Positions 670-17,214 are shown, numbered from the stretch's first letter. The stretch is DNA of 38,174 nucleotides from an uncultured Saprospiraceae bacterium (GCA_937930625.1 CALHBW010000097.1:1-38174), one strand, 5' to 3'. Program-made: numbers and translations. Notes: generated from the letters alone by a model not told the origin.

Positions 670-678
670 TTTTACTTT

Positions 679-815
679 AGTTCAAGTTCAAGTATCAAGT
701 ACAAACTCAATATTAAATTTCGCTACGCGAAATACTTGAATTATTTTTATTATATTGAATAAGTGCATGTGTCATAGGTAATATTGTACTTGAACTTGAC
801 ACTTGCACTTGCACT
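679..815. repeat. Word-palindrome, AGTTCA/AGTA words (rpsD|rpsK gap)
   Basis: Left arm agttcaagttcaagtatcaagtacaa; right arm ttgtacttgaacttgacacttgcacttgcact; central mini-hairpin atttcgc-tac-gcgaaat (717..733). Confidence 0.8.
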
Positions 816-818
816 TTT

Positions 819-1205
819 CTATACTCTTCTGCGTTTTGGTGGGCGACAACCATTGTGAGGAATTGGTGTCACGTCACGAATAATGCTCACTTTAATGCCT
901 TTAGAATCAATGGCACGAATGGCAGACTCTCTACCTGAACCCGGTCCTTTGACGAACACCTCCACGGTTCTCAAACCTGCTTCGTGTGCTTTGGAAGCAG
1001 CATCCGAAGCAGCTATCTGAGCTGCATATGGCGTATTTTTCTTAGACCCTCTAAAACCGGATTTACCGGCAGACGACCATGAAATCACCTGCCCTTGTCG
1101 ATTGGTCAAAGTGATGATGATATTATTAAAGCTGGCTTGGATATAAGCGTAACCTTTCGGTTCCACTTTCACCTTTCTTTTCTTCGCTTTTCTTGATTTT
1201 GCCAT
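819..1205 (-). CDS. rpsK: 30S ribosomal protein S11
   Basis: 128 aa, ...[17 protein letters not shown]...[10 protein letters not shown]-terminus typical of S11. Confidence 0.97.
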
Positions 1206-1215
1206 TATTTATTTT

Positions 1216-1297
1216 GTTTATTGAGTTTATTGAGTTTATTAGTTATTAGGTATGAGTTACCCCTTATGAACTTTATAAACTTAATAAACCAATCACT
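1216..1297. repeat. Word-palindrome, GTTTATTGAG words (rpsK|rpsM gap)
   Basis: Left arm gtttattgagtttattgagtttatt pairs with aactttataaacttaataaac (about 22/27). Confidence 0.8.
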
Positions 1298-1298
1298 A

Positions 1299-1676
1299 TT
1301 ATTTCGTTGCTTTCTTCTTGTTGGCGACTGTTTTACGTTTACCTTTACGGGTACGCGCATTGGTCTGAGTACGTTGTCCGCGTAAAGGCAAACCTTTACG
1401 GTGACGCAATCCTCTGTAACAACCAATATCCATCAATCGCTTGATATTCATCTGGATTTCTCCGCGCAAAGCACCTTCTACGGTATAGCTATCACCGATT
1501 GCCTCACGAACGTTTTTGATGTTATCGTCTGTCCAATCTTTCACTTTTACGCTCTCATCAATCTCGCATTTTGCCAAAATTTCTTTTGCGCGAGTATCAC
1601 CGATACCGAAGATGTACGTCAAGCCAATGACGCCTCTTTTATTTTTAGGTAAATCAACACCTGCTATCCTTGCCAT
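1299..1676 (-). CDS. rpsM: 30S ribosomal protein S13
   Basis: 125 aa, [14 protein letters not shown]..., basic C-terminal tail. Confidence 0.97.
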
Positions 1677-1696
1677 GATATTTATTTATTGTTTTA

Positions 1697-1822
1697 TTGT
1701 TTCATGGTTTCATGGTTTCATGGTTCGATTGTTTCATGGTAATAATGATAATTTGCAAAGCAAAATTATCATTAAATAAAAACAATGTAACAATGAAGCC
1801 ATATAGCAATGAAACAATGAAA
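1697..1822. repeat. Word-palindrome, TGGTTTCA words with TTTGCAAAGCAAA core (rpsM|rpmJ gap)
   Basis: Left arm ttgtttcatggtttcatggtttcatggttcgattgtttcatgg; core palindrome 1745..1772; right arm aacaatgtaacaatgaagccatatagcaatgaaacaatgaaa. Confidence 0.85.
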
Positions 1823-1824
1823 TC

Positions 1825-1941
1825 TTATCCTTGACGCTGTTTGAATCGCGGATTTTTTTTGTTAATGACGTATAATTTTCCTTTTCTGCGAACGATTTTG
1901 CAATCAGCAGAACGCTTTTTGATTGAAGCTCTTACTTTCAT
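1825..1941 (-). CDS. rpmJ: 50S ribosomal protein L36
   Basis: Absent from the ORF track (too short). Manual translation of the minus strand gives [38 protein letters not shown], 38 aa. Lies between infA and rpsM as expected. Confidence 0.93.
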
Positions 1942-1946
1942 AATTA

Positions 1947-2092
1947 ATGAGTGAATGAGTGAATTTGGAATGAGTGAATGGCTAATGAATGAGTGAATGA
2001 ATTATCAATGAATGAATCAGCTTACTTAGCTATGTAATTCATTCATTCTTTCATTCAAAATTCATTCATTGGCATTTCTCATCATTATTCAC
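1947..2092. repeat. Word-palindrome, GAATGAGT words (rpmJ|infA gap)
   Basis: Left arm aatgagtgaatgagtgaatttggaatgagtgaatgg...; right arm aattcattcattctttcattcaaaattcattcatt.... Confidence 0.85.
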
Positions 2093-2109
2093 AATATTTT
2101 ACATTAAAA

Positions 2110-2328
2110 TTATTTATATCTATATGTAATACGTCCTCTACTGAGGTCGTATGGTGACATTTCAACAGCTACTTTATCCGAGGGTAAGATACGAATGTAG
2201 TTCATACGCATTTTACCGGAGATAGTAGCAATGATTTCATGACCGTTTTCGAGACGCACTCTAAACGTTGCGTTAGAAAGTGCCTCTGAAACTGTGCCGT
2301 CTTGTTTGATTAAATCCTGTTTTGCCAT
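2110..2328 (-). CDS. infA: Translation initiation factor IF-1
   Basis: 72 aa, [13 protein letters not shown]...[10 protein letters not shown]1-like fold signature. Confidence 0.96.
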
Positions 2329-2354
2329 AGCTTAAAATTTTGGAGTGCAAATAT

Positions 2355-3188
2355 CTAGTTTTTTACTTGAAATTCCAAATTTATGACATTAGGATTGCTT
2401 TCCATGCCTTCGTAGGCGTAATCATGCGTGGTCAAGATTTCCGTTCCGCTCTTGCGTACTACGACGGTATGTTCGTAATGCGCTGATGGTTTTCTATCTG
2501 TCGAAACAACTGTCCAACCATCTCTCAAGGTCTTGACTCGTCGTGTTCCCATATTAATCATGGGTTCTATTGCAATGACTAAACCGTCTTGAAGCTTATT
2601 GCCTTTTCCACGTCTGCCGTAGTTGGGCACTTGAGGGTCTTCGTGCAAACTCTTTCCCAAACCATGTCCGACCAATTCGCGTACTACACCATATTTACAT
2701 TCGCGCTCTGCATAATTTTGTACCGCAAAACCAATATCGCCGATACGTTTACCCACTACCGCAACATCAATGGCGCGATACAAACATTCATTGGTGACCT
2801 CCATGAGTCGCATGACTTCAGGTTTTACCTCGCCAATCGGATAGGTAAATGCACAATCGCCATAATAATCATTCAGAATCACTCCGCAATCTACCGATAC
2901 GATATCGCCTTCTTCAAACGGCTTGTCTGACGGAATACCGTGTACGACTTGCTCATTGATAGATACGCATAAGGTAGCCGGAAAATCGCCATAACCTTTG
3001 AAGCCGGGAGTGGCATTATGGTCACGTATAAATTCTTCTGCCGCTTTGTCAATGTTTTCGCCCGTCTCTCCGGCGCGAATCATACTTGCTACTACTCCAT
3101 GTGTGCGCGAAACCAAGTCCGCGCTTAGGCGCATTAGCTCTATCTCCTCGTCTGTTTTATAATAAATCTGTTTATAACGTCTTCTCAT
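2355..3188 (-). CDS. map: Methionine aminopeptidase type I
   Basis: ORF 2355..3272 trimmed to Met29 (cat at 3186-3188). The upstream 28 codons translate a hairpin repeat and overlap the secY stop. MAP pattern: ...VVHGIP...DCGV..YYGD...GHGLG...IEPM...EHT. Confidence 0.9.
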   Translation of the reverse strand: MRRRYKQIYYKTDEEIELMRLSADLVSRTHGVVASMIRAGETGENIDKAAEEFIRDHNATPGFKGYGDFPATLCVSINEQVVHGIPSDKPFEEGDIVSVDCGVILNDYYGDCAFTYPIGEVKPEVMRLMEVTNECLYRAIDVAVVGKRIGDIGFAVQNYAERECKYGVVRELVGHGLGKSLHEDPQVPNYGRRGKGNKLQDGLVIAIEPMINMGTRRVKTLRDGWTVVSTDRKPSAHYEHTVVVRKSGTEILTTHDYAYEGMESNPNVINLEFQVKN

Positions 3189-3202
3189 TGTAGTTGCGTA
3201 AC

Positions 3203-3252
3203 ACAGACATTCTTGTCTGTAGTCCGGCAAGCACAGACAGGAATGTCTGTGA
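3203..3252. repeat. Twin hairpins / 19-bp inverted repeat (map|secY gap)
   Basis: cacagaca-ttct-tgtctgt, 11 nt, then cacagaca-ggaa-tgtctgtg. Each half is a hairpin, and the halves are also mutually complementary (1 mismatch). Confidence 0.8.
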
Positions 3253-3258
3253 TACGTT

Positions 3259-4632
3259 TTACATCGGCGCACCGATAGTCATGCCGCTTCTTCTACCTTT
3301 AACACGACCTGTTTTTACCAATCCGTCATAACGACGCATCAATAGGTGACTTTCAATTTGTTGTAAGGTATCAAGTACTACACCGACCATAATAAGGAGT
3401 GATGTACCACCAAAGAACATAGCGAAGCCAATATTTACACCTCCCAATCTTGCTGCAAAAGCAGGCAGGATAGAGATAAGTCCTAAGAAAATAGAACCCG
3501 GTAATGTAACGCGTGTCGTAACTGTATCAATAAATTCGGCAGTACTCTTACCCGGTTTCACACCCGGAATAAAAGCATTTTGACGCTTAAGGTATTCAGC
3601 GTGTTGCTGCGGATTTACAATCAAAGCCGTATATACGTAAGTAAAGATAACGACTAAGAAAAAGTAAATGATATTATATGGTGCAGATGTAAAATCGTTC
3701 AAAGCGGTGAGCCAAGCCGGTGGTGCTTCGTTTGCTCCCATCGCGAATTGTGCCAGAGTAGCCGGCAAGAACATCAATGCCTGTGCAAAGATGATAGGCA
3801 TTACCCCTGCTGCGTTGACCTTTACGGGAAGGTAATCACGCACACCTGTAACGGGTGCATTCGTTTGTCCGCGCCCGACCATGCGTTTGGCATATTGCAA
3901 GGGTATCCGGCGTACTGCCTGAATAATGAGTATCGTAACCGCCGTAACCGCGACAAGTGCCGCCAAGACAAGTACGAAACTAATCAAACCACCCGTTCCA
4001 CCTGATAGGCGTAAGTCGATTTCACCAAAGAACGCTGAAGGTAGTGTAGCGATAATACCAATCATGATGAGCAATGAAATACCATTACCGATACCTCTGT
4101 CGGTGATGCGCTCACCGAGCCACATCGCAAGGATAGTACCCGCCGTAAGGATAATAATATTGGACGCCCAGAACGTAAACGGACTGATACCGGGAGATAC
4201 TGCACCGGGGAAAGTCGCATTGATATAGGTCAGGTAACCACCTGCTTGTACAAGTGTGATGGCTACGGTCAACCAACGTGTAATTTGGTTGAGTTTTCTT
4301 CTGCCTGACTCGCCTTCTGTTTTTTGTAATTTTTGGAAATATGGTACAGCAAATCCCAAGAGTTGCACGATGATAGATGCCGAGATATAAGGCATGATAC
4401 CGAGTGCAAAGACCGCCGCATTGTTGAACGCACCACCCGTGAATGAATTGAGCAATCCGAGTAGGTTGTTTTGTCCGGCGGCTGCGTTTTCGAGTGCCGC
4501 AGGATTGATGCCGGGCAATACCACATACGAACCAAAACGGAACAACATCAATAGTGCCAACGTAAACAGGATGCGCTTACGAAGGTCTTCTATCGACCAA
4601 ATATTTTTGAGTGTGGTGATGAATTTGTTCAT
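3259..4632 (-). CDS. secY: Preprotein translocase subunit SecY
   Basis: 457 aa multi-pass membrane protein, MNKFITTLKNIWSIEDLRKRILFT.... Sits between rplO and map. Confidence 0.97.
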   Translation of the reverse strand: MNKFITTLKNIWSIEDLRKRILFTLALLMLFRFGSYVVLPGINPAALENAAAGQNNLLGLLNSFTGGAFNNAAVFALGIMPYISASIIVQLLGFAVPYFQKLQKTEGESGRRKLNQITRWLTVAITLVQAGGYLTYINATFPGAVSPGISPFTFWASNIIILTAGTILAMWLGERITDRGIGNGISLLIMIGIIATLPSAFFGEIDLRLSGGTGGLISFVLVLAALVAVTAVTILIIQAVRRIPLQYAKRMVGRGQTNAPVTGVRDYLPVKVNAAGVMPIIFAQALMFLPATLAQFAMGANEAPPAWLTALNDFTSAPYNIIYFFLVVIFTYVYTALIVNPQQHAEYLKRQNAFIPGVKPGKSTAEFIDTVTTRVTLPGSIFLGLISILPAFAARLGGVNIGFAMFFGGTSLLIMVGVVLDTLQQIESHLLMRRYDGLVKTGRVKGRRSGMTIGAPM

Positions 4633-4644
4633 TATACTATTTTT

Positions 4645-4732
4645 TAGTCCATAGTCCGTAGTCCATAGTCGATAGTTTGTCCCTAGCTCCCTTGCGTTTG
4701 CCTGCGGACTATTGACTATGGACTATCGACTA
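4645..4732. repeat. Word-palindrome, GTCCATA words (secY|rplO gap)
   Basis: tagtccatagtccgtagtccatagtcgatagt versus ggactattgactatggactatcgacta (about 22/25). The right arm overlaps the rplO stop codon. Confidence 0.85.
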
Positions 4733-5176: not shown

Positions 5177-5184
5177 TATTTGTT

Positions 5185-5336
5185 AGTTTATTGGTGATTG
5201 GTTTATTGAGTTTATTGGGTTTATTAAGTTTATTAAGTTATTAGATTTTAATTATTTGATAAAAAATAATTCTGATTTATCTTTTGCTAACTTAATAAAC
5301 TGAATGAACTTAATAAACTAAATGAACTAATCACTA
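5185..5336. repeat. Word-palindrome, GTTTATTGAG words (rplO|rpmD gap)
   Basis: Left arm gtttattgagtttattgggtttattaagtttattaagttattag; core aattatttgataaaaaataatt; right arm ctaacttaataaactgaatgaacttaataaactaaatgaactaatcac. Confidence 0.85.
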
Positions 5337-5518: not shown

Positions 5519-5527
5519 GATGAATAT

Positions 5528-5693
5528 GAGTTGACGAGTTGTTGAGTTGTTGAGTTGTTGTTTTGGTGAGTATCGGTTTGATGATTTGTCGGCTTGGTGA
5601 GTTGTTATGTTATCGTTTTTCGACAACTCTACAACTCGTTAATTCGTCAATTCATCAATTCGTCAACTCTACAACTCGTCAACTCACCAAAAC
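5528..5693. repeat. Word-palindrome, GAGTTGTT/GAGTTGAC words (rpmD|rpsE gap)
   Basis: gagttgacgagttgt (5528-5542) is the exact complement of acaactcgtcaactc (5671-5685). gttttggtgag (5560-5570) is the exact complement of ctcaccaaaac (5683-5693). Confidence 0.9.
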
Positions 5694-5698
5694 GTTGC

Positions 5699-6319
5699 TT
5701 ATCCGTTGAATAATTTATCCATTGTGATGCCGCGTGCTTTCGCAATTTCCATTGGGCTGCGAAGTTGTGAGAGGGCATCTAAGGTAGCTTTGATAACGTT
5801 GTGTGGATTGGGCGAACCTTGTGTTTTTGCCAATACGTTTTGAATACCGGCAATCTCCAATACTGCACGCATCGGACCACCCGCGATTACACCTGTACCA
5901 TCAGAAGCCGGCTTGATGAGGACTTTACCTGCACCGTATTTCCCTTTGACCGCATAAGGAATTGTTCCTTTGTGAAGTGGAAATTCGATGACGTTTTTCT
6001 TTGCATCATCAACAGCTTTGGCGATAGCCTCTTGTACGTCACGAGCTTTACCTAAGCCGTGCCCTACTTTGCCTTTGCCATTACCAACTACAACGACTGC
6101 CGCAAAACTGAATGTACGACCACCTTTGGTAACTTTTGCTACACGATTCAGGTTGACAAGTTTTTCTTTAAACTCGGATTCCTGAACGGATGCTTGTCTA
6201 TCGCCACGACCTCTGCCGCCTCTGCGATTGCCACCACGGTTATTACCTCCACCGCGATTGTTGCCACCACCACGGTTATCACCACCGCCGCGATTATTAT
6301 TATTTCTGTTATCAGCCAT
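5699..6319 (-). CDS. rpsE: 30S ribosomal protein S5 with a ~45-aa N-terminal RGG-rich extension
   Basis: 206 aa. The S5 core starts around [27 protein letters not shown]-terminus is [42 protein letters not shown]. Confidence 0.95.
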
Positions 6320-6333: not shown

Positions 6334-6470
6334 AAGTTTAAGTTTAAGTCTAAGTTTAAGTTTAAAAATTATTTTTTTTCAAAAAATAATAATTTATTAT
6401 GAATTTACATTATATAAATTTAATTGAAAATTAAATTTTTAAACTTAAACTTAAACTTAAACTTAAACTT
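6334..6470. repeat. Word-palindrome, AGTTTA hexamers (rpsE|rplR gap)
   Basis: 33-nt arms 6334-6366 and 6438-6470 are complementary at 32/33. The 71-nt AT-rich loop contains the palindrome attattttttttc-aaaaaataat. Confidence 0.92.
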
Positions 6471-6828: not shown

Positions 6829-6925
6829 TATATTGTTTACTTTGATTTGAAATGATCCACGACCAACGGACAAGAATGTCCGGGTTACGGGCTGCCATTT
6901 CGTAAGTAAAATATTTTAATTTTGA

Positions 6926-7047
6926 TGATTAGTTATTGAGTTGACTAAGTTTATTAAGTTGATAGGTGTGAATTATTTTTTTATGAAAAATAATAAACTC
7001 TTGTAAACTAATTGAACTTAATAAACTCCATGAACTAATAACTAACT
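6926..7047. repeat. Word-palindrome, GTTTATTGAG-type words (rplR|rplF gap)
   Basis: Left arm gattagttattgagttgactaagtttattaagttgatagg; core aattatttttttatgaaaaataataa; right arm cttgtaaactaattgaacttaataaactccatgaactaataactaactc. Confidence 0.85.
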
Positions 7048-7606: not shown

Positions 7607-7688
7607 TTTAAGTTTAAGTTGAAGTTTAAGACTAAGTTTAAGTTCAGCTTCTATTTAAACTTGAACTTCAACTTAAACCTAAACTTAA
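7607..7688. repeat. Word-palindrome, AGTTTA/AGTTGA hexamers (rplF|rpsH gap)
   Basis: tttaagtttaagttgaagtttaagactaagtttaagtt versus aaacttgaacttcaacttaaacctaaacttaa. Confidence 0.85.
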
Positions 7689-8097: not shown

Positions 8098-8135
8098 TTT
8101 TATATTTTTTCTTCAGCAACCTATCTTCTAATCTT

Positions 8136-8260
8136 GAATGAGTGAATTGTGAATGAGCGAATGGAATTTTTGATTTTCGGTTTAGTGATTTTTGATTATT
8201 CAATCAAAATTTAATATCACACAAAACCATTTAGCTCTTTCTTAATTCTTTTATTCAAAA
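8136..8260. repeat. Composite element GAATGAGTGAAT...TTTTTGATT-ATTC-AATCAAAA...ATCACAC (rpsH|rpsN gap)
   Basis: Clear paralogue of 13436..13537 (same order of blocks). The right outer arm is degenerate. Confidence 0.8.
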
Positions 8261-8435
8261 CAGAAGGCGCAGTGTGATTATCTGCTTAGTCTGTCCGAAT
8301 TCTTTTTTTAACGGCAAACGGTTTTTGCTTGCGTTAAATAAATAATCACTTGAAATCTCGGTGAATTTACCGGATTTTAGTTTGATAATTTTTTTCCTAT
8401 ATATCTGAACAAGCGAGATGCTTGCAGTTAGGTCG

Positions 8436-8705: not shown

Positions 8706-8716
8706 AATTTTTTATT

Positions 8717-8795
8717 TAAATTCCAAAAAACAAATTCCAAATTTCAATTCGTTCTGCGCTCTACTTTCGTCTGGATTCTGATTATTGGTTATTTT
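8717..8795. repeat. TTCCAAA-word element (rpsN|rplE gap)
   Basis: aaattccaaaaaacaaattccaaa, about 30 nt, then a degenerate complement ctggattctgattattggttatttt. Contains the 21-nt motif at 8720-8740. Confidence 0.65.
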
Positions 8796-8801
8796 AATTT
8801 C

Positions 8802-9350
8802 TTATTTGTTTTGGTTTTGGAAGGGTAAACCCATCAATTTGAGCAATTCGAGTGCTTCGGCATCTGTTTTTGCAGTTGTGACAAAGGTGATGTCCATACC
8901 GGTGATTTTATTGATTTTATCAATATCAATCTCCGGGAATATGATTTGCTCTTTGATACCTACGGAATAGTTTCCGCGTCCATCAAAACTTTTGTCGCTG
9001 ATACCGCGAAAGTCACGTACACGAGGAAGTGCTACATTTACAAATCTGTCAAGAAATTCATACATCTGACCACCACGCAATGTAACTCGTACACCAATTG
9101 GCATTCCTTCACGCAACTTAAAGTTGGAGACAGATTTTTTGGCTTTGACAGCTACGGCTTTTTGTCCTGCAATGAGGGTCATTTCGCCGATGGCATTGTC
9201 CACCAATTTTTTATCCGAAGTCGCTTCACCTACACCTTGATTGATGCAAATTTTGGTGATTTTTGGCACCTCCATAATGGATTTATATTCAAATTTCTCC
9301 ATTAATGCAGGTACTGCTTCTTGTAAATATTTTTCTTTTAAACGTCCCAT
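8802..9350 (-). CDS. rplE: 50S ribosomal protein L5
   Basis: ORF 8802..9374 trimmed to Met9 (cat 9348-9350): [24 protein letters not shown].... The first 8 ORF codons (MNLNLNLI) translate the AAGTTC word array. Confidence 0.93.
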
Positions 9351-9354
9351 GATT

Positions 9355-9400
9355 AAGTTCAAGTTCAAGTTCAAGAATCAAGTTCAAGAATCAAGTTCAA
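9355..9400. repeat. One-armed AAGTTC/AAGAATC tandem array (rplE|rplX gap)
   Basis: aagttcaagttcaagttcaagaatcaagttcaagaatcaagttcaa fills the whole gap. No complementary arm nearby. Confidence 0.85.
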
Positions 9401-9727
9401 TTATCGTATCGTATTTCCTGATTTTTTTGAATAACGAACGATTTTTCCATCCTCCACTCTGCGTCCTATACGGGTACCTGTGCTGCCTTCCATCAACATC
9501 AAATTAGAAATATGAATGCTTGCAGGAATATCCGTAATTTCTCCCGGTTGGTCTTGGGTCGGTTTGCGGTGTTTCTTTTTCAAATTAACGTCAGAAACAA
9601 TCGCACGGTTTTTGTCAGGAAATACTTCCAAGACTTCACCTGCATCTCCTTTGTGAACGCCCGCAATGACTACTACGGTGTCTCCTTTTTTTATTTTTAA
9701 TTTCGGTGCGAATCTTTTCTTGCTCAT
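9401..9727 (-). CDS. rplX: 50S ribosomal protein L24
   Basis: 108 aa, KLKIKKGDTVVVIAGVHKGDAGEV (KOW motif). Confidence 0.95.
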   Translation of the reverse strand: MSKKRFAPKLKIKKGDTVVVIAGVHKGDAGEVLEVFPDKNRAIVSDVNLKKKHRKPTQDQPGEITDIPASIHISNLMLMEGSTGTRIGRRVEDGKIVRYSKKSGNTIR

Positions 9728-9737
9728 TTTAAATCGT

Positions 9738-9811
9738 ATTGTTGTGTTGTTGTGTTGTCGTGTTGTCGTCTTACTAAGGACAGCAACTTTTTTAACGACT
9801 GCTCAACAATC
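9738..9811. repeat. Word array GTGTTGTT/GTGTTGTC with weak complement (rplX|rplN gap)
   Basis: attgttgtgttgttgtgttgtcgtgttgtcgtc versus ggacagcaac..acgactgctcaacaatc. Only partly complementary. Confidence 0.6.
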
Positions 9812-9818
9812 AGACATT

Positions 9819-10187
9819 TTAAAGTACTTCCGGTGCGAGCGAGACAATTTTCATAAAATCTTTGTCGCGCAACTCACGGGCTACGGGTCCGAAGATACGA
9901 GTACCACGTGGTTCTTCAGAAGCATTGAGGAGGACAACTGCATTGTCGTCAAAACGGATATATGTACCGTCTTTTCTGCGAATCTCCTTTTTGGTGCGAA
10001 CGATAACGGCTTTGGATACGGTTCCTTTTTTTATCTCACTGCCGGCAGATGCAGATTTGACCGTAACGACAATCATATCGCCAATGGAAGCATATCTGCG
10101 CTTTGAGCCTCCCAACACGCGGATGCAGAGTACTTCTTTTGCTCCGCTATTGTCAGCGGCTTTTAGCCTTGATTCTTGCTGTATCAT
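9819..10187 (-). CDS. rplN: 50S ribosomal protein L14
   Basis: 122 aa, [27 protein letters not shown].... Confidence 0.97.
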
Positions 10188-10200
10188 TTTATTTTCTCTA

Positions 10201-10307
10201 GAATGAGTAAATGAGTAAATGAGTAAATGAATAAATGAGTAGATAAATTAAGGTTGAATATTGACAAACTGCATTTACTCATTTTGTCATCTATTCATTT
10301 ACTCATT
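10201..10307. repeat. Word-palindrome, AAATGAGT words (rplN|rpsQ gap)
   Basis: gaatgagtaaatgagtaaatgagtaaatgaataaatgagtagataaat versus catttactcattttgtcatctattcatttactcatt. Confidence 0.85.
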
Positions 10308-10308
10308 T

Positions 10309-10578
10309 TTATTTAGCTCTTTCTATTATTTCTACTAATTTCCAACGCTTTTTCTTGCTCAATGGGCGAGACTCGACGATTTTCACTTTGTCGCCAATGC
10401 CACATGAGTTTTCTTCGTCGTGCGCTGTGAATTTTTTGGATTTCTTAACGAACTTACCATACATCGGGTGCTGGAGGCGACGCTCTACTTTTACAGTAAT
10501 CGTCTTGTCCATTTTATCGCTGGTTACGACTCCGACTCTTTCTTTTTTTAAGCCCTGCTTTTGCTGCTGTTCTGACAT
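10309..10578 (-). CDS. rpsQ: 30S ribosomal protein S17
   Basis: 89 aa, ...[30 protein letters not shown].... Confidence 0.96.
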
Positions 10579-10586
10579 TTTTTATC

Positions 10587-10700
10587 AGTTTATTGAGTTT
10601 ATTGGGTTTATTGAGTTTGTTAAGTTATTAGAATGATTTTTTACAAAAAAAACCTGATTTACTCTTTATTAACTTAATGAACTCAATAAACGAATAAACT
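10587..10700. repeat. Word-palindrome, GTTTATTGAG words (rpsQ|rpmC gap)
   Basis: Left arm cagtttattgagtttattgggtttattgagtttgttaagttattag; core gattttttacaaaaaaaacc; right arm ctttattaacttaatgaactcaataaacgaataaact, which reaches the rpmC stop. Confidence 0.85.
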
Positions 10701-10962
10701 ATTTACTAAGTCTGCGACGAGCGCGAATTTTAGTTCTTTTAGCGAGTTGCTCCGGCGTCATTGCCGCGAGTTCGCGAGCGCGAACTTCGGTTCTGAGTCG
10801 GGCAATATCTCTTCTCAAATCTTTGATTTTCAAAGGATTTTCAAGTCCTGTTACAGAATTTTGAATTTTCATTCGATGCAATTCTGTTTCTGCCGCGAAA
10901 ATTTCATCGCGTAAGGCGTCATCTTCAAGACCTTTTATGCTGGTATATTTCTCCGATGCCAT
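10699..10962 (-). CDS. rpmC: 50S ribosomal protein L29 (with basic C-terminal extension)
   Basis: 87 aa, ...LRDEIFAAETELHRMKIQNSVTGLENPLKIKDLRRDIARLRTE.... Sits between rplP and rpsQ. Confidence 0.92.
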   Translation of the reverse strand: MASEKYTSIKGLEDDALRDEIFAAETELHRMKIQNSVTGLENPLKIKDLRRDIARLRTEVRARELAAMTPEQLAKRTKIRARRRLSK

Positions 10963-10970
10963 ATTGCGTT

Positions 10971-11042
10971 AGTTACGGGTTGCGGGTTACGGGTTACGGG
11001 TTATTTTCTTACAACCATTAACCATTAACCGTTAACCATTAT
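10971..11042. repeat. Heptamer arrays GGGTTAC versus TAACCAT (rpmC|rplP gap)
   Basis: gttacgggttgcgggttacgggttacgggtta, 9 nt, then taaccattaaccattaaccgttaaccatta. Only the GGTTA/TAACC core of each 7-mer is complementary. Confidence 0.75.
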
Positions 11043-11044
11043 TT

Positions 11045-11464
11045 TTACTCTGAGTAGTCTCTGCGAACTACAACTTTTGTTAGTACAGGCAGTTTTTGTG
11101 CTGCGAGGCGAAGTGCTTCGTTAGCAACTTTTCTCGGTACACCTTCAATCTCGAACATGATACGTCCGGGTTTGACAACAGCTACATAGTGGTCGAGTGC
11201 TCCTTTACCTTTACCCATACGTACTTCGGCGGGTTTGCTGGTAATCGGCTTGTCGGGAAAAATACGAATCCAGACCTGACCTTCCCTTTTCATATAACGA
11301 GTCATCGCAACACGCGCAGATTCTATTTGGCGGTTGGTAATTCGCCCTGCGTCGAGTGTTTTCAGTCCAAACGTGCCGAAAGCTAATGTAGCTCCGCGTT
11401 GCGCGTTGCCGCGTACACGTCCTTTCTGCATTTTACGATATTTCGTTCTCTTTGGCTGTAACAT
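11045..11464 (-). CDS. rplP: 50S ribosomal protein L16
   Basis: 139 aa, [16 protein letters not shown].... Confidence 0.97.
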
Positions 11465-11553
11465 TTTCTATAAATTTGTTGTCGTTCTATTGCCCCAAAT
11501 CTCAAACGGGGTGCGAAGGTACGACTAATCTGTCAAATATTGAAATTTTCTGA

Positions 11554-11660
11554 TGTTGTATGTTCGATTGCTGTATTGTTTGATGGTTCGATTGCTATAT
11601 AAAATTTTGCTTTGCAAAATTTCAATATAACAATGAAGCCATTCAACAATATAACAATGA
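11554..11660. repeat. Word-palindrome, GGTTCGATTG/TTGTTTGA words with TTTGCTTTGCAAA core (rplP|rpsC gap)
   Basis: Left arm gttgtatgttcgattgctgtattgtttgatggttcgattgctatat; core 11606-11618; right arm aatataacaatgaagccattcaacaatataacaatgag. Confidence 0.85.
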
Positions 11661-11663: not shown

Positions 11664-12449
11664 CTATCTTCTATCTCTTCCGCCACCGCCACCTCTGTTG
11701 CCGCCGCGTCCTCTACCTCCACGTCCTCTGTCACGTCCGCCGCCGCGTCTGTCACGTCCGCCGCCTCTGCCGCCACGTCCGCCTTGCTCTTTCTTGACGC
11801 CTACATTTGGTGAAAGGTCGCGCTTGCCGAATACTTCTCCTTTGCAAATCCAGACTTTGACACCGATTTTTCCATAGATGGTTTGTGCTTCGCAAAGTGC
11901 GTAGTCAATATCCGCACGGAAAGTGTGCAGTGGTGTACGTCCATCTTTAAACTCTTCCGAACGTGCCATCTCCGCACCATTCAAACGTCCCGAAATACGT
12001 ACTTTGATGCCTTCTGCACCGGCACGCATGGTAGATTGAATAGACATTTTGGTCGCACGGCGATAGTTGATACGTGCTTCGAGTTGCTTTGCAATTTGCT
12101 CGGCTACGATAGCAGCATCCATTTCCGGTTTGCGAATCTCTACGATATTGATTTGTACATCTGTACCGGTCAATCGCTTGATTTCCTCGCGGATTCTATC
12201 TACTTCCTGACCACCTTTACCAATGATGATACCCGGACGTGATGTATGAATCGTAACGGTGATACGTTTGAGTGTACGCTCTATGATGATACGAGCAATA
12301 CCGCCTTTGCTGATTCTGGCTTTGAGATATTCACGGATTCTTTGGTCTTCTACGACCTTTTTTCCCATGTCTTTTCCACCAAACCAACTAGATTCCCAAC
12401 CTCTGATGATGCCAAGTCGATTGCCTATCGGATTTGTTTTCTGACCCAT
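11664..12449 (-). CDS. rpsC: 30S ribosomal protein S3 with a ~40-aa C-terminal RGG/RDR-rich tail
   Basis: 261 aa, [23 protein letters not shown]..., KH domain. Tail is [39 protein letters not shown]. Confidence 0.96.
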
Positions 12450-12452
12450 TTT

Positions 12453-12593
12453 ATTAGTTTATCAGTTTATTAAGTTAATTAGGTGTGTAGTGATATGATT
12501 TAAAGAATGAATTTTGAATATTCTACCTGCGCTATTATCAATTCACTTATTATTCAAAATTATTAATCACTAATCACCAATCACTAATTACTG
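12453..12593. repeat. Composite word element (rpsC|rplV gap)
   Basis: Left part attagtttatcagtttattaagttaattaggtgtgtagtgat..gaatgaattttgaata; right part attcacttattattcaaaattattaatcactaatcaccaatcactaatt. Confidence 0.65.
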
Positions 12594-13000: not shown

Positions 13001-13003
13001 GAT

Positions 13004-13076
13004 AAGTTCAAGTTCAAGTTCAAGTTCAAGTTCAAATTAGTTTTGATGAAAATTTAAACTTGTTATCAGAACTTAG
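13004..13076. repeat. AAGTTC hexamer array with short partial complement (rplV|rpsS gap)
   Basis: (aagttc)x5 at 13004-13036. Partial complement tttaaacttgttatcagaacttag. Confidence 0.75.
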
Positions 13077-13148
13077 TTAATAATTGATTTGAAATGAATA
13101 GTGAGTGAAAAAACACTCAATTATGCACTCTCAATTTTCAATTAAAAA

Positions 13149-13421
13149 TTATTTCTTCTTATTACCTGCGTGACCTCTGAAGTTGCGGGTCGGTGAAAAT
13201 TCACCCAATTTGTGACCCACCATATTTTCAGTAACGAAGACAGGCACGAAGGTTTTTCCATTATGCACGGCAATAGTTTCTCCCACCATTGTCGGTATAA
13301 TCATGGATGAACGCGACCACGTTTTGATAACGCTTTTGCGCTTCGTATTTTCTTTCGCTTTTTCTAATTTGACCAATAGTTTGTGATAAACGTATGGTCC
13401 TTTCTTTAATGAACGAGGCAT
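13149..13421 (-). CDS. rpsS: 30S ribosomal protein S19
   Basis: 90 aa, [16 protein letters not shown]...[23 protein letters not shown]. Confidence 0.97.
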
Positions 13422-13435
13422 ACTGTATTAATTTT

Positions 13436-13537
13436 GAATGAGTGAATTTTGAATGAGTGAATTATTTTTGATTCAGCGATTTTAGATTTTTGATTGTTCA
13501 ATCAAAAATCACTAAATCTAAAATCACACAATCTCTC
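13436..13537. repeat. Composite element GAATGAGTGAAT...TTTTTGATT-GTTC-AATCAAAAA...ATCACAC (rpsS|rplB gap)
   Basis: Paralogue of 8136..8260. Inner stem gattttagattt..ttgattg / caatcaa..aaatctaaaatc. Confidence 0.85.
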
Positions 13538-13538
13538 A

Positions 13539-14372
13539 TTACTTCTTCTTCGCGTTTCTTCTACTGATAATCAATTTATTCGATGGTTTTTTCGGATTGC
13601 GCGTTTTCTGACCTTTTGCCATGACGCCTGTGCGCGAGCGTGGGTGTCCACCTGATGCGCGACCTTCACCACCACCCATTGGGTGATCGACAGGGTTCAT
13701 GGCTACACCACGTACTCTTGGTCTGCGTCCTTTCCAACGGTTGCGACCAGCTTTACCCATGATTTCGAGTGAGTGGTCAACGTTGGATACGCGTCCAATC
13801 GTGGCTCTGCATGTCAAAAGGATTCTGCGGGTTTCGCCTGATGGCAATTTCAAGATGGCGTATTTGCCTTCACGTCCTTGCAATTCTGCGTAAGTTCCTG
13901 CACTTCTTGCCATTGCCGCGCCTTTGCCCGGCTGCATTTCTACTGCGTGAATGGACGAACCGAGTGGAATGTCACTCAAAAACATGGTGTGTCCTGTTTC
14001 AGGCAATGCGTGTTTTCCGGAGCGTACTGCGTCACCGACTTTGATTCCGTCGGGTGCGAGCATATATTTCTTTTCACCGTCTTCATATTGCAAAAGCGCG
14101 ATGAATGCCGAGCGGTTCGGGTCGTACTCAATGGTCAAGACCTTTGCTGACATATCATCTTTGTTGCGTTTGAAGTCGATGATACGGTATTTGCGTTTGT
14201 GTCCGCCACCTCTGTTGCGAACGGTCATACGTCCTTGTGAGTTACGCCCACCGGATTTCTTGATTCCTACGGTAAGGCTTTTTTCCGGTTTGTTCGTCGT
14301 GATTTCCTCGTATGTATTGGAAACACGGTGACGAAGTCCCGGTGTCATTGGTCTATACTTTTTGACTGGCAT
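13539..14372 (-). CDS. rplB: 50S ribosomal protein L2
   Basis: 277 aa, [15 protein letters not shown]...[16 protein letters not shown]. Confidence 0.97.
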
Positions 14373-14397
14373 TGTTCTTTATTTTTGAGAAATGTGG

Positions 14398-14532
14398 ACT
14401 TTCATTGTTACATGGTTTCATGGTTGTATTGTTTCATTGTTTTTTTTATTATTTATGAATTTTGCAAAGCAAAATTTAATAACTATATGAACATAAAAAC
14501 AATAAAGCAATCGAGCAATGAAACAATGAAAC
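14398..14532. repeat. Word-palindrome, TGGTTTCA words with TTTGCAAAGCAAA core (rplB|rplW gap)
   Basis: Left arm ctttcattgttacatggtttcatggttgtattgtttcattg; core 14461-14473; right arm caataaagcaatcgagcaatgaaacaatgaaacc. Confidence 0.85.
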
Positions 14533-14679
14533 CTGCTTACGGTATCGCCTTTTGCGATTACTCAATGCCTTGTAAGCAGTTCCAACCTTCTCTGATTTTC
14601 AAATTGTACCGACGATTTTAATGCCGAGTTGTACACTTTTATATATTTACATGGCGATTGAAATCGCCTGTACAGCTTC

Positions 14680-14973
14680 TTATAATTCACCGTAGATGTC
14701 GAGTTCTTCGCCATCCGGTATCATAACGATTGCTTTTTTGTAGGAAGCCTTGCGACCTTTGATGACACCGCTGCGGGTCATACGGTTTTTGGTTCTTGCA
14801 GGCATGATCATGGTGTTGACAGATACAACGGGTACACCATACATTTCTTCAATTGCCTTCTTGATTTCAATCTTGTTCGCCTTTTTATGCACGATAAATG
14901 TGTGACGATTCATTGTCTCTGACAATTTTTCCGTCTTTTCCGTGATGTGTGGCTTTATGATGATATTTTTCAT
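14680..14973 (-). CDS. rplW: 50S ribosomal protein L23
   Basis: 97 aa, ...IIKPHITEKTEKLSE...HTFIVHKKANKIEIKKAIEEMYGV. Confidence 0.95.
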   Translation of the reverse strand: MKNIIIKPHITEKTEKLSETMNRHTFIVHKKANKIEIKKAIEEMYGVPVVSVNTMIMPARTKNRMTRSGVIKGRKASYKKAIVMIPDGEELDIYGEL

Positions 14974-14986
14974 AACGTATATTTCC

Positions 14987-15014
14987 GTATAGATGCGATT
15001 AATCGCGTCTCTAC
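14987..15014. repeat. 28-nt near-palindrome (rplW|rplD gap)
   Basis: gtatagatgcgatt|aatcgcgtctctac, 12/14 complementary. A related ggcgat-tgaa-atcgcc lies at 14653-14668. Confidence 0.7.
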
Positions 15015-15023
15015 CGTATGATT

Positions 15024-15656
15024 TTATGACAGCGTTTCAGTTATTTTTTCGATAGCACCTTCCGAAAGGATGAGGCATTTATTATTAAGAATATCGTAAG
15101 TACTAAGGTCGCTGGCTAATTTGACATTTGCTTTGGGAATATTGCGACTGGAGAGGTAAACGTTGTCGTCGTTTTCGCTGAGTACCAGAAGTGTTCTCTT
15201 GCCTGTCAACTCAAGGCTGTTGAGTATGTCGGCGTACTGGCGTGTGCTTGGTGCGTCGAAGGTAAAATCTTCTAATACGAGGATTTCTTCGTTTTGTGCT
15301 TTGCCGGAAAGGGCAGATTTACGCGCCAATGCTTTGACTTTTCTATTGAGTTTTTGGTTGTATGTGCGTGGTCTGGGTCCAAATATACGTCCACCACCTC
15401 TGAATATCGGGCTTTTGATACTACCTGCACGAGCTGTACCTGTTCCTTTCTGACGCTTTATTTTTTTGGTCGAACCTGTAATTTCGCCACGCTCTTTTGC
15501 TTTGTGCGTACCCTGACGCTGATTGGCTAAATATTGTTTGACGGCGAGATATACCACATGCTCATTCGGCTCAATACCAAATATCTCATCAGGCAAATTT
15601 GCTTGTTTACCTGTACTTTCGCCGTTTATATTTTTAATATCTAATTGCATAACCAA
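15024..15656 (-). CDS. rplD: 50S ribosomal protein L4
   Basis: 210 aa, ...QRQGTHKAKERGEITGSTKKIKRQKGTGTARAGSIKSPIFRGGG.... The start could be Met1 or Met3. Confidence 0.95.
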   Translation of the reverse strand: MVMQLDIKNINGESTGKQANLPDEIFGIEPNEHVVYLAVKQYLANQRQGTHKAKERGEITGSTKKIKRQKGTGTARAGSIKSPIFRGGGRIFGPRPRTYNQKLNRKVKALARKSALSGKAQNEEILVLEDFTFDAPSTRQYADILNSLELTGKRTLLVLSENDDNVYLSSRNIPKANVKLASDLSTYDILNNKCLILSEGAIEKITETLS

Positions 15657-15659
15657 GTT

Positions 15660-15719
15660 GTAAGTTTAAGTTTAAGTTTAAGTTTAAGTTTAAGTCTAAA
15701 AATAAAACTTGACTTAAAT
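15660..15719. repeat. AGTTTA hexamer array with short complement (rplD|rplC gap)
   Basis: gtaagtttaagtttaagtttaagtttaagtttaagtctaaa, then aaacttgacttaaat. The arms are strongly asymmetric. Confidence 0.8.
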
Positions 15720-15824
15720 CCATTTTGGAAATAACAAGCGTTTTGAAATCGGTTGTTATTTAGCTTTCTTTTTGAATCTGATGAATGTCGATAAAACGAA
15801 TTACGAATTAACGAATCGCGATTT

Positions 15825-16454
15825 TTATTTTTCAACAATGACGTAACCGCCTTTGTGTCCGGGTACTGCGCCACTAATGAGTATCAGGTTTTTTTCCGGG
15901 TAAATTTTTAAAATTCGGAGGTTTTGAGTTTTTACGCGCTTGCCGCCCATGCGTCCTGCCATTCGCATACCTTTGAATACTCGTGCAGGGTAAGATGCTG
16001 CACCAATAGAACCCGGCGCACGCAATCTGTTGTGCTGACCGTGTGTAGCATCACCAACGCCTCGGAATTTGTGACGCTTGACAACCCCCTGAAAGCCTTT
16101 ACCTTTAGATTTGCCGACAACACTGACTACGTCACCTTCTGCAAATACATCTTCTACGGTAATGGTATCGCCTAATGATTTTTCAATTTCAAAATCGCGA
16201 AACTCTACAACTTCACGCTTGGGTGTAGTACCTGCTTTGGCGAAGTGTCCTTTCAATGGTTTAGTAGTGGCATTTCTACCTTCTACTTTTGCTTCGTCAA
16301 ACCCTAATTGAAGGGCGTTGTACTTGTCTGTATCTTCTGTCTTCACTTGCGTAACTACACAAGGTCCGGCTTCTACGACTGTACAAGCGATATTTTTTCC
16401 GTCTTCGGTATGAATACTGGTCATACCTATCTTTTTACCGATAAGACCTTCCAT
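15825..16454 (-). CDS. rplC: 50S ribosomal protein L3
   Basis: 209 aa, [20 protein letters not shown]...[11 protein letters not shown]. Confidence 0.97.
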
Positions 16455-16457
16455 ATA

Positions 16458-16588
16458 AGTTTATTGAGTCAATAGTTTATTGAGTTTATTAGGTTTATTG
16501 AGTTTATAAAGTTATTAGGTGTGAATTATTTTCCTAATGAACTCTATCAACTAAATGAACTTAGTAAACTAAATAAGCTGATAACTAA
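16458..16588. repeat. Word-palindrome, GTTTATTGAG words (rplC|rpsJ gap)
   Basis: agtttattgagtcaatagtttattgagtttattaggtttattgagtttataaagttattagg versus cctaatgaactctatcaactaaatgaacttagtaaactaaataagctgataacta. Confidence 0.85.
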
Positions 16589-16702
16589 TTTTTTGAATAA
16601 ATGCGTAGCCGTTAAGCCTTTTAATTCGCATTAAAAGGCAACTAAAGTGTACCGTCGTAACTTTTGAACTACTTCGATACCAATTCCGACTTAGTAATTT
16701 TG

Positions 16703-16732
16703 AATGAGTGTCCCGATAGCTATCGGGATGAA
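16703..16732. repeat. 30-nt repeat containing the 18-bp perfect palindrome TCCCGATAGCTATCGGGA (copy 1)
   Basis: aatgagtgtcccgatagctatcgggatgaa is identical to 20966..20995. Confidence 0.9.
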
Positions 16733-16768
16733 ATTTACTTATTCATCTTACTTATCCACAGGGAAAGA

Positions 16769-17077
16769 TTACGTCAATTTCACTTGGATGTCAACACCAC
16801 TTGGCAATTCCAGCTTGGAGAGTGCATCTACGGTTTTGGGCGTAGGCGTGTAAATCTCTATCAAGCGTTTGTGTGTACACAATTGGAACTGCTCGCGCGA
16901 CTTTTTATTGACGTGAGGAGACCGTAGTACGGTGTAAATCTTTTTCTCTGTGGGCAGCGGAATCGGTCCTGCCACTACAGCACCGCTGTTGCGGACAGTT
17001 TTGATAATCTTTTCCGTTGATTTGTCCACTAAATTGTGGTCATAAGAACGGAGTTTAATTCTAATCTTTTGATTCAT
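16769..17077 (-). CDS. rpsJ: 30S ribosomal protein S10
   Basis: 102 aa, [20 protein letters not shown]...[14 protein letters not shown]. Confidence 0.97.
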
Positions 17078-17084
17078 AACCCCA

Positions 17085-17129
17085 GTTAAGTTTAAGTTTA
17101 GACTTAATTCGTAAACTTATACTTAGTTT
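17085..17129. repeat. Short AGTTTA-word hairpin in the rpsJ 5' leader
   Basis: gttaagtttaagtttagactta / taaacttatacttagttt. Followed by the hairpin gcgga-ctat-tccgc at 17138-17151. Confidence 0.65.
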
Positions 17130-17214
17130 GTGCTAATGCGGACTATTCCGCTTTTCGCACGTTTTTGAATGATTTTATTTATTAATTTGGTAGCTGTTCG
17201 CTTTTAAAGCGGTG

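Follow-up and report, generated by a model that had tools for sequence, protein, structure and literature searches.

Comparable intergenic repeats and the locus studied

Several described kinds of intergenic repeat resemble the elements considered here, which are hairpins built from tandem words of 6-9 nt in the spacers of the ribosomal protein (r-protein) gene supercluster of an uncultured Saprospiraceae bacterium (GCA_937930625.1, CALHBW010000097.1:1-38174; this whole stretch of 38,174 nt is called the window). In filamentous cyanobacteria, short tandemly repeated repetitive (STRR) sequences consist of tandem 7-bp units and form a hairpin between the co-transcribed genes hupS and hupL, an arrangement called "not unusual"; their function is unknown, and transcript stability or translational coupling has been suggested (PMC2670836). 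Direct repeats of the heptamer TAACTGA lie just upstream of start codons, including those of r-protein operons, in Beggiatoaceae, cyanobacteria, and a few Bacteroidetes; the arrays of some Bacteroidetes are long and are not found in close relatives, and the sets are direct repeats only, with one inverted case reported and no predicted secondary structure (PMC4679880). Repetitive extragenic palindromic (REP) sequences, together with BIMEs and REPINs, are high-copy extragenic palindromes within operons, often just past stop codons, which form fast-evolving families, may be nested or clustered, and affect mRNA stability and translation of the upstream gene (PMC3116915, PMC12306157). Reports of 6-9 nt repeat units are rare in bacteria (PMC4692102), and our literature search found no description of the present elements for Saprospiraceae. 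The evidence below suggests that they are probably selfish or neutral palindromic tandem-word repeats, a genome-wide population of tolerated passengers rather than a dedicated ribosomal regulator.

No bacterial gene array is more conserved or more tightly packed than the str/S10/spc/alpha cluster, for whose short spacers translational coupling is the usual explanation. To our knowledge, the r-protein operons of E. coli are not filled with REPs. The organism studied here evidently makes ribosomes although structured, hypervariable repeat DNA takes up 3.9 kb of its cluster, about a quarter of the total.

Long, hairpin-filled spacers in the r-protein cluster

The supercluster lies on the minus strand in the order rpsL-rpsG-fusA, an open reading frame (ORF) of 162 aa, and then rpsJ to rpsD. 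After the start codons of rpmD, rplR, rplE, rplD, and map had been corrected and rpmJ had been located, the 27 rpsJ-rpsD spacers (within 670-17133) measured 26-338 nt, with a median of 146 nt, and summed to 3,910 nt, or ~24% of the cluster. The unusually long gaps reported in a first-pass annotation of this DNA are therefore genuine: in the same cluster, annotated in 80 other species retrieved with uL5, the median spacer is ~5 nt in Cytophagales and 15-55 nt in most Saprospiraceae, and only a few Saprospiraceae (L013, L018, L003, and L009) have enlarged medians of 81-115 nt. In a scan of genome contigs the nearest uL5 matches of the window were Saprospiraceae at 77-79% identity, and by these matches the window appears to represent an unsampled member of this family. 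That scan gave no same-species genome, and the close relatives used below, namely the sister species L081 that serves as comparator, L082, and L210, came from exact-protein look-ups.

A typical spacer, read in the mRNA sense, comprises a run of 6-9 nt words, an AT-rich center, a complementary run of words, a short A-rich tract, and the ATG. Palindromes were scored by a mismatch-tolerant alignment in gaps of at least 45 nt and were called strong at a score of at least 30 that also exceeded all 50 shuffles. Strong palindromes were found in 18 of the 29 such gaps of the window, 17 of them inside 670-17133, and 16 of these 17 have tandem-word arms, the exception being secY–map. Complementary word arrays pair more weakly in five gaps (rpsN–rpsH, rplP–rpmC, rplV–rpsC, rplN–rplX, and rplE–rpsN), and essentially one-armed arrays abut the start codon in three (rplX–rplE, rpsS–rplV, and rplC–rplD), while the map–infA spacer has neither hairpin nor array. 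The first-pass count of 25 out of 30 gaps was generous, as the robust count is 16-21 of 27 and reaches 24 with the one-armed arrays. Two stems that had been singled out proved exact, with 32 of 33 positions matching between 6334-6366 and 6438-6470 and a perfect 15-mer at 5528-5542 versus 5671-5685.

Two checks proposed with the original observation also came out in its favor. The minimum free energy (MFE) of the sense strand gave z = -4 to -11 in most gaps against 100 dinucleotide shuffles, and tandem repeats covered 2.4% of coding sequence, 14.9% of intergenic sequence, and 22.5% of the cluster spacers. Tandem Repeats Finder (TRF) returned periods of 6, 7, 8, and 9 nt in 3-13 copies. Strong palindromic gaps numbered at most 7 in any of the 80 other species, compared with 18 in the window, and saturation of the cluster with hairpins is a peculiarity of this lineage. 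There is next to no likelihood that low-complexity sequence arising by chance, or an artifact of assembly, accounts for the pattern. Contigs do at times break inside arrays (the ends of L186 and L210), but the palindromes outscore every dinucleotide shuffle and the same architecture recurs in independent JGI, ENA, and Logan assemblies; this explanation, like that of attenuators considered below, is effectively ruled out.

The stems contain 290 T.A, 193 A.T, 112 G.C, and 28 C.G pairs (5'.3'). The G/T-rich 5' arm and A/C-rich 3' arm described earlier are thus real (G.C 112 vs. C.G 28), but arm polarity had to be rejected as a sign of orientation to transcription, because a palindrome reads with the same polarity on both strands. 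Information on orientation relative to the genes is carried solely by one-armed arrays, loops, and mismatch types.

Genome-wide spread of the word families

In the 16 kb of non-cluster DNA in the window, the same architecture occurs at 27196-27323 and 30816-31029 (Table 1). Smaller word hairpins there adjoin acs, araC, and a lipoprotein gene, and one-armed arrays lie in convergent gaps (28862-28983 and 23835-23863). When one 16-mer word pair, AATAAACTCAATAAAC, was used to scan metagenomes, most of the matches were chance ones in unrelated AT-rich contigs, and only L186, L203, L206, L164, and a few others were usable. These four contigs hold several of the window's word families together with dispersed palindromes, from which we infer that they derive from related organisms. 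Their hairpins flank genes for RimK, AstE, a GT4 glycosyltransferase, CrcB, ExbB, Tdk (thymidine kinase), Rpe, YhdP, and RNase G. Nesting occurs among these elements, and the longest arrays have about 14 words. Within the window, the words AATAAACTC, ACTCATT, AACTTA, CTTGAA, and CATGAAAC each recur in 3-6 gaps. The words are restricted to this lineage, and the other Saprospiraceae with enlarged spacers have words of their own. Overall, the hairpins are a property of the genome with no specificity for r-protein genes. Their initial framing as a feature of the r-protein supercluster was too narrow.

An apex mini-palindrome, TTTTGCnnnGCAAAA, is common to elements built of different words and forms a perfect inverted repeat around a 3-nt spacer. 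E. coli REPs bind gyrase and integration host factor, and one could imagine a comparable role at the DNA level, in which the apex or cruciforms would be bound, for example by a nucleoid or recombination protein, or would serve structurally, for example in managing the supercoils of heavily transcribed DNA. We consider such a role very unlikely: the perfect apex repeat is common to several word families and has its loop in either orientation, but only a minority of elements carry the motif and no candidate protein was found.

Turnover between close relatives

Between the window and L081, proteins are 93-100% identical, coding DNA is 93.2% identical, and 4-fold sites are 20.5% diverged. Aligned spacer columns are 41-96% identical, with a mean of about 77% that is similar to synonymous sites, and a further ~770 spacer columns are indels. 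Comparison with relatives, which had also been proposed as a check, gave a divided answer, in that some hairpins are orthologous in L081 (rpsK–rpsD, rpsH–rplF, and rplO–secY being well kept) and others are resized or replaced. At 6 of 19 gaps (rplP–rpmC, rpsQ–rplN, secY–map, infA–rpmJ, rpmJ–rpsM, and rpsM–rpsK) L081 has another word family or element, and at rplF–rplR and rpsN–rpsH whole elements have been added or nested in one species relative to the other (Table 1). No clean case of a target-site duplication or an empty site was found against L081, only replacements and resizing.

Change is also visible over much shorter distances. L081 and L082 are 99.8% identical over 8.7 kb and differ by only two indels, both of which lie in hairpins; one is exactly one 8-nt word in the rpsE–rpmD hairpin. 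L210 is 99.6% identical to the window and conspecific with it, and its rplR–rpsE hairpin differs, with imperfect arms and apex TTTTGGCGAAGCCAAAA; the apex triloop at this site is GAA in L210 and flipped to TTC in L081. Since L210 lacks the perfect stem, the near-perfect 32/33 rplR–rpsE stem of the window is a recent, strain-level state. The repeats evolve as palindromes, with word-unit slippage and apex flips between strains, and are a good natural system for palindrome dynamics.

Selfish or neutral repeats as the favored reading

Among the roles listed in the first-pass annotation, which favored none of them, that of a selfish palindromic element expanding by slippage is best supported, by a genome-wide distribution, family structure, word-unit indels, within-species polymorphism, replacement and resizing between sister species, and apex flips. 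Under this reading, intergenic palindromic repeats of the lineage would have colonized most spacers of the str/S10/spc/alpha cluster as well as ordinary intergenic regions. Arrays may lengthen and shorten by replication slippage, and the complementarity of the arms may be maintained by intrastrand template switching (quasipalindrome correction) or by recombination between inverted repeats, either of which would account for the flipped apex loops.

Each element would occupy a formerly short ancestral spacer, and the geometry of the flanks fits such insertion. Of the 17 strong hairpins, 14 have a 5' arm that begins 0-12 nt past the stop codon, and in 13 the distance from the end of the 3' arm to the start codon is 6-22 nt. 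The two flanks of a hairpin together sum to about 10-35 nt, matching the spacers of compact relatives. In highly expressed operons selection may then filter the insertions that survive. A compact fold with no U-tail would cause no termination and expose no long single-stranded RNA, and with the G-poor, A/C-rich arm facing the start codon the A-rich initiation region would remain unpaired, so that any effect on the mRNA would be at most modulatory. Such a filter would match initiation in Bacteroidota, in which A-rich unstructured start regions promote translation (as in F. johnsoniae) and Shine-Dalgarno pairing is unused (PMC6847099).

Several observations weigh against the elements being mere passengers. 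Some whole hairpins are 91-94% identical in L081, and the near-saturation of gaps in an essential operon exceeds simple tolerance. The polarity bias, with the G/T arm 5' in roughly 20 cases to 2, and the A/C-rich one-armed arrays imply selection at the level of mRNA or translation, which fits either a filter or a function. In the gaps that could be aligned with L081, divergence is 10.8% at paired sites, 18.7% at unpaired sites, and 20.5% at 4-fold sites; the lower value for paired sites could reflect purifying selection on the stems, or it could be an artifact of the aligner sliding in tandem arrays and of the choice of alignable gaps. Neither a transposase nor a target-site duplication nor a clean empty site was found in the window or the fragments of its relatives, and a mechanism of mobility is therefore not apparent. 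In addition, the analysis covered 38 kb of this genome and, of its relatives, fragments.

Relation to described repeat classes

The elements work like a blend of STRR, TAACTGA, and REP sequences, and membership in each of these classes fails. The earlier statement that they could not be assigned to a named class needs amending in view of the comparable STRR hairpins (PMC2670836) and tandem heptamers (PMC4679880). Like STRR sequences, they consist of short head-to-tail intergenic units (6-9 nt by TRF, 3-13 copies), form hairpins between co-transcribed genes (16-21 of 27 spacers, z -4 to -11), and are common in the genome. They differ in that the host belongs to Bacteroidota (Saprospiraceae) rather than to the filamentous cyanobacteria, the units of 6-9 nt fall into many lineage-specific families with arms of up to 30-65 nt, and most spacers of the r-protein cluster are filled. 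The STRR consensus heptamers, which we take to be CCCCAGT, TTGGTCA, and CAACAGT, are not found in tandem in the window.

TAACTGA repeats are likewise tandem words in intergenic DNA, and they end a few nucleotides before starts in one orientation. A comparable placement may apply here, where the distance to the start codon is 6-22 nt for the 3' arms of 13 of the 17 strong hairpins and 0-5 nt for one-armed arrays. By contrast, most arrays of the window have an inverted partner and fold strongly, and TAACTGA itself occurs in the window as three single copies, none of them in tandem. As in REP families, the elements are high-copy, dispersed, extragenic, imperfect palindromes that form families, as seen in the coding and intergenic coverage (2.4% vs. 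14.9%), in words shared by 3-6 loci, and in the related contigs. REP stems, however, are unique sequences of 20-40 nt with family end tags (GTAG/CGTC), whereas the stems here are word arrays. A cognate REP-associated tyrosine transposase (RAYT, IS200-like) was not seen in the 38-kb window or the fragments of its relatives, in which no dedicated search was possible.

The elements also recall miniature inverted-repeat transposable elements (MITEs) and other small dispersed repeats of cyanobacteria and other bacteria, in being small and palindromic, in nesting, and in replacing conserved intergenic sequence (compare the 18-nt TCCCGATAGCTATCGGGA below). In the comparison with L081 no terminal inverted repeats with target-site duplications were recognized, and the bulk of each element is an internally repetitive array. 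They do not resemble CRISPR arrays, as the words of 6-9 nt are contiguous and lack spacers. Taken together, they would be best classed with the palindromic tandem repeats of STRR/REP type, here in a phylum new for them and at unusual density in the r-protein cluster, and not as a new class of ribosomal regulator; tandem-word repeats of the STRR/TAACTGA kind are thereby extended to Saprospiraceae.

Search for signatures of a role in the mRNA

In-silico signatures favoring structure at the mRNA level, which would bear on the suggested roles in RNA processing, stability punctuation, and translational insulation, are absent. An excess of G.U would be expected if the mRNA hairpin were selected, but sense-strand mismatches of the A.C type (41) exceed those of the G.U type (22), so that this check, also suggested by the first-pass annotation, went against the mRNA; likewise, the antisense strand usually folds better than the sense strand. 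Stem-pair changes between the window and L081 comprise 4 that are compensatory and 52 that break a pair, with 112 of 514 pairs lost to indels, in a covariation test of low power for which the structure was derived from the window. Rfam covariance models at gathering thresholds, including curated r-protein leaders, gave 0 hits over the whole window, and a scan for sigma-70 promoters, whose consensus is not that of Bacteroidota, found no enrichment. The idea that a ribosome terminating at the stop codon unmasks the next start was considered and rejected: the start region (-12 to -1) is predicted to be largely single-stranded with the hairpin present (mean unpaired probability 0.66), and forcing the stem base open raises this only to 0.69.

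Long RNase III hairpins lie between the stop and start codons of cistrons in the early mRNA of phage T7, where the sites are specific and conserved and have internal loops; the sequences here, by contrast, are hypervariable. A functional intercistronic punctuation, as RNase III-type processing sites, as barriers to 3'-exonucleases, or as stop-start bridging for re-initiation across 100-300 nt, is unlikely. Stems of 25-60 bp do start close behind stops (0-12 nt) and end close before starts (6-22 nt), and nearly all gaps have a hairpin despite differing sequence, but gaps between convergent or divergent genes, and other gaps outside operons, contain these elements too, and most relatives do with spacers of 5-30 nt. 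In alignable gaps stems have diverged less than loops and 4-fold sites, and rpsE–rpmD and rpmD–rplO have been resized in both arms together, whereas elsewhere hairpins are lost, replaced, or degenerate, both in sister species and within a species. The mismatch types, the poorer folding of the sense strand, the scarcity of compensatory changes, and the nearly unaltered start accessibility on opening the stem base also argue against punctuation. Precedents nevertheless exist in the transcript stability or translational coupling proposed for the hupS-hupL STRR hairpins (PMC2670836) and in E. coli REP hairpins, which affect translation when they lie at most 15 nt from the stop codon (summarized in PMC12306157).

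The most interesting alternative is a domesticated form of such punctuation, in which the repeats have become obligatory devices that hold the stop beside the next A-rich start, allowing Shine-Dalgarno-blind ribosomes to re-initiate or shunt across a 100-300 nt spacer, each hairpin perhaps being cut or capped as well, for cistron-specific mRNA stability. Any pair of complementary word arrays would serve this purpose, and the architecture would therefore be constant and the sequence free. We regard domestication as unlikely. If the elements are used, they would be a new form of operon punctuation; if they are passengers, they would set an upper bound on the structured spacer tolerated in a phylum without Shine-Dalgarno pairing.

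Another possibility, which we rate as quite improbable, places the function in the 3' arm, where A/C/U-rich, G-poor words would form multivalent landing pads (for example, for bS1) in Shine-Dalgarno-independent initiation and the G/U-rich 5' arm would mask them, tuning or coupling the effect. The one-armed arrays beside start codons are all A/C-rich (rplX–rplE, rpsS–rplV, rplC–rplD, and, in L206, upstream of yhdP), and the 40 nt upstream of start codons contain 10% G and 41% A. TAACTGA repeats, for which bS1 is a proposed binder, lie in the same position (PMC4679880), and in F. johnsoniae translation benefits from an initiation region that is A-rich and unstructured (PMC6847099). However, the words differ wholly between gaps and between sister species, implying no specific binder, and arrays also follow stop codons in convergent gaps with no start downstream. 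Most arrays, moreover, are sequestered in long stems, and relatives manage without them.

Strong hairpins within transcribed spacers might also suggest transcription attenuators, one of the roles listed in the first-pass annotation, or intrinsic terminators, but this is extremely unlikely. Terminator-like sites number 16, compared with 16.1 expected, and the word hairpins correspond to none of them. The combination of G+C-rich hairpin and U-run typical of an intrinsic terminator is missing, as the 3' arms are followed by A-rich, not U-rich, tracts, and termination in each gap of an essential operon is implausible.

Catalogue of elements

Table 1. Hairpins and word arrays of the window. Elements within the cluster are named by the genes flanking the spacer; scores are palindrome alignment scores and z values refer to the sense-strand MFE unless stated.
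Element	Position	Strand	Words and apex	Score and folding	Relatives (L081 unless stated)
rpsK–rpsD hairpin	679..815	-	CAAGT/CTTGAA words; 5' arm 779-815, 3' arm 679-715	42.5 (shuffle maximum 23.5), z -5.2	94% identity
rpsM–rpsK hairpin	1213..1292	-	GTTTATTGAG/AATAAACTC family	33, z -4.0	TTCCAAA-type element instead
rpmJ–rpsM hairpin	1692..1822	-	GTTTCATG/CATGAAAC words, apex TTTTGCTTTGCAAA	52, z -6.5	other 8-nt words, apex of same kind
infA–rpmJ hairpin	1954..2086	-	GAATGA(GT)/ACTCATTC family	42, z -5.8	
secY–map hairpin	3197..3256	-	CACAGACATTCCTGTCTGTG...CAGACAAGAATGTCTGTG, without tandem words; separate dispersed palindrome family	39, z -6.4	tandem-word element instead; near-unchanged copy in an unrelated gap of L203 (11053-11113)
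rplO–secY hairpin	4648..4729	-	TAGTCCA/GGACTAT 7-nt words	32.5, z -5.2	arms kept, loop deleted; 91% identity
rpmD–rplO hairpin	5194..5334	-	AGTTYATT/AATAAACTY family	62.5, z -8.5, antisense z -12.1	10 nt missing from 5' arm, 6 nt from 3' arm
rpsE–rpmD hairpin	5527..5686	-	GAGTTGWY/CAACTC 8-nt words	52, z -9.8	shorter by 16 nt (5' arm) and about 23 nt (3' arm)
rplR–rpsE hairpin	6334..6470	-	(AAGTTT)5/(AAACTT)5, AT-rich loop	73.5, z -11.1	
rplF–rplR hairpin	6928..7039	-	AGTTYATT family	46, z -5.7	additional GAATGA-family element, about 150 nt, downstream of hairpin
rpsH–rplF hairpin	7608..7688	-	AAGTTT/AAACTT family	41, z -5.5	91% identity
rpsN–rpsH composite	8125..8266	-	GATTTT/AAAATC nested between GAATGA/TCATTC arms	28 (shuffle maximum 27)	inner element not present
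rplE–rpsN weak hairpin	8714..8798	-	reversed-polarity TTCCAAA/TTTGGAA family	19, z -0.8, not significant	
rplX–rplE one-armed array	9351..9400	-	(CTTGAA)n directly before start codon, no partner arm	TRF period 6/13	core conserved in L081 and L085
rplN–rplX weak hairpin	9747..9809	-	(CAACA/CGACAACA)n 3' array	16.5, z -1.2, antisense z -3.6	
rpsQ–rplN hairpin	10209..10308	-	AAATGAGT/ACTCATTT 8-nt words	49.5, z -8.0	other family; window family with indels in L085
rpmC–rpsQ hairpin	10598..10698	-	GTTTATTGAG/AATAAACTC family	40, z -5.7	both arms with more words
rplP–rpmC arrays	10972..11041	-	GGTTAAT x4 + CCGTAAC x4 (7-nt), partly complementary	20, z -1.8; TRF matches 92% and 90%	other 7-nt words
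rpsC–rplP hairpin	11567..11658	-	CATTGTTA/CAATCGAAC words, apex TTTTGCAAAGCAAAA (motif at 11605)	41.5, z -5.8	
rplV–rpsC weak hairpin	12476..12590	-	GTGATTA words, AATAAACT-type 3' end	24.5, z -2.2	
rpsS–rplV mostly one-armed array	13004..13035	-	(CTTGAA)5 before start codon, weak partner arm	TRF 100%	
rplB–rpsS hairpin	13450..13538	-	GATTTT/AAAATC words, then ACTCATTCAAAATTC array 13430-13468	33, z -4.5	
rplW–rplB hairpin	14407..14532	-	GTTTCATT/CATGAAAC family, apex TTTTGCTTTGCAAAA at 14460	46.5	
rplC–rplD mostly one-armed array	15655..15699	-	(AACTTA)7 before start codon, weak partner arm	TRF 94%	
rpsJ–rplC hairpin	16467..16586	-	AGTTYAYT/AATAAACTC family	50.5	
hisIE–glycosyltransferase spacer hairpin, outside cluster	27196..27323	+	CATGAAAC family, apex TTTTGCTTCGCAAAA	from sequence and TRF	
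One-armed 122-nt array in convergent gap	28862..28983	+	CAACTCATCAACCCGT..., no partner arm	TRF score 139-176	
Giant hairpin upstream of recN, outside cluster	30816..31029	+	GTTATTC/GTTGATTC vs. ACGAATA words, apex TTTGCCAAAGGCAAA; 214 nt	gap folds at -118 kcal/mol; TRF 5.6-13 copies	

One spacer of the cluster stands apart. The rplE–rpsN spacer is exactly 96 nt long in three lineages, unlike most other gaps, and its TTCCAAA/TTTGGAA element (8714-8798) has a second copy upstream of rpsL (22196-22290), the two having TTTGGAATTTGTTTTTTGGAATTT in common. The element in this spacer could be a true leader and not a passenger.

Other palindromes, gene calls, and neighboring genes

Three further palindromes were noted beside the word hairpins. 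The 18-nt perfect palindrome TCCCGATAGCTATCGGGA is nested in ACTCATT-type arrays at 16711-16728 and 20974-20991; it is also present in L081, L013, and L002, and L085 has a variant of it that breaks up the (CTTGAA)n array preceding rplE. The sequence resembles a mobile palindrome of very small size, common to several Saprospiraceae. A G+C-rich palindrome, CCTCCAAAGGGGGAG...CTCCCCCTTTGGAGG, has two copies, one of which (28224-28287) lies in frame inside a PMT_2 glycosyltransferase gene (...PQPPPKGE...SPPLEGAGGW...) and the other (38120-38165) at the end of the window; it is a separate dispersed family able to sit in coding sequence. In L206, the region 9000-11610 contains many copies of the palindrome CCAAAGCTAAAGCTTTGGACTCCA in successive intergenic gaps, which would be a REP-like family distinct from the tandem-word hairpins.

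The hairpins also have practical consequences. ORFs traverse hairpin arms at 5519-5626, 6829-6873, 9351-9374, and 27186-27329 in the window and at 4392-4475 in L081, and mechanical as well as public gene calls therefore contain false N-terminal extensions, such as an rplR of 146 aa in L081 and a glycosyltransferase called from 27186. Public contigs end within arrays, as L186 does in (TGGTTAA)n at 12406-12478 and L210 with its 3' end at the rplR–rpsE hairpin; the repeats therefore fragment short-read assemblies, and metagenome-assembled genomes probably contain fewer of them than the organisms do.

Between fusA and rpsJ no tuf gene is found, and the 162-aa ORF in this interval has no Pfam match. 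Together with this ORF, a DUF433 and DUF5615/PIN-like gene pair, encoded on the strand opposite to the r-protein genes, separates the str operon from the S10 operon (17634-18225, +, and 18236-18724, -). The gene pair resembles a toxin-antitoxin module.

A conserved box, TAnnTTTGCAC(T/C)CC, precedes infA (2329-2354), rpsJ (about 17100-17160), and rplP (about 11490-11520), and it precedes the same three genes in other Saprospiraceae (L003, L013, and L018). The box resembles the Bacteroidota -7 promoter element, and its positions suggest conserved internal promoters in the r-protein cluster. Longer tandem repeats occur within two r-protein genes, as 18-nt units (6231-6299, rpsE) encoding an N-terminal NNRGGG-repeat extension of uS5 and as 21-nt units (11727-11783, rpsC) encoding an RGG-rich C-terminal tail of uS3, and the lengths of rpsE and rpsQ differ by 9 nt between the window and L081.

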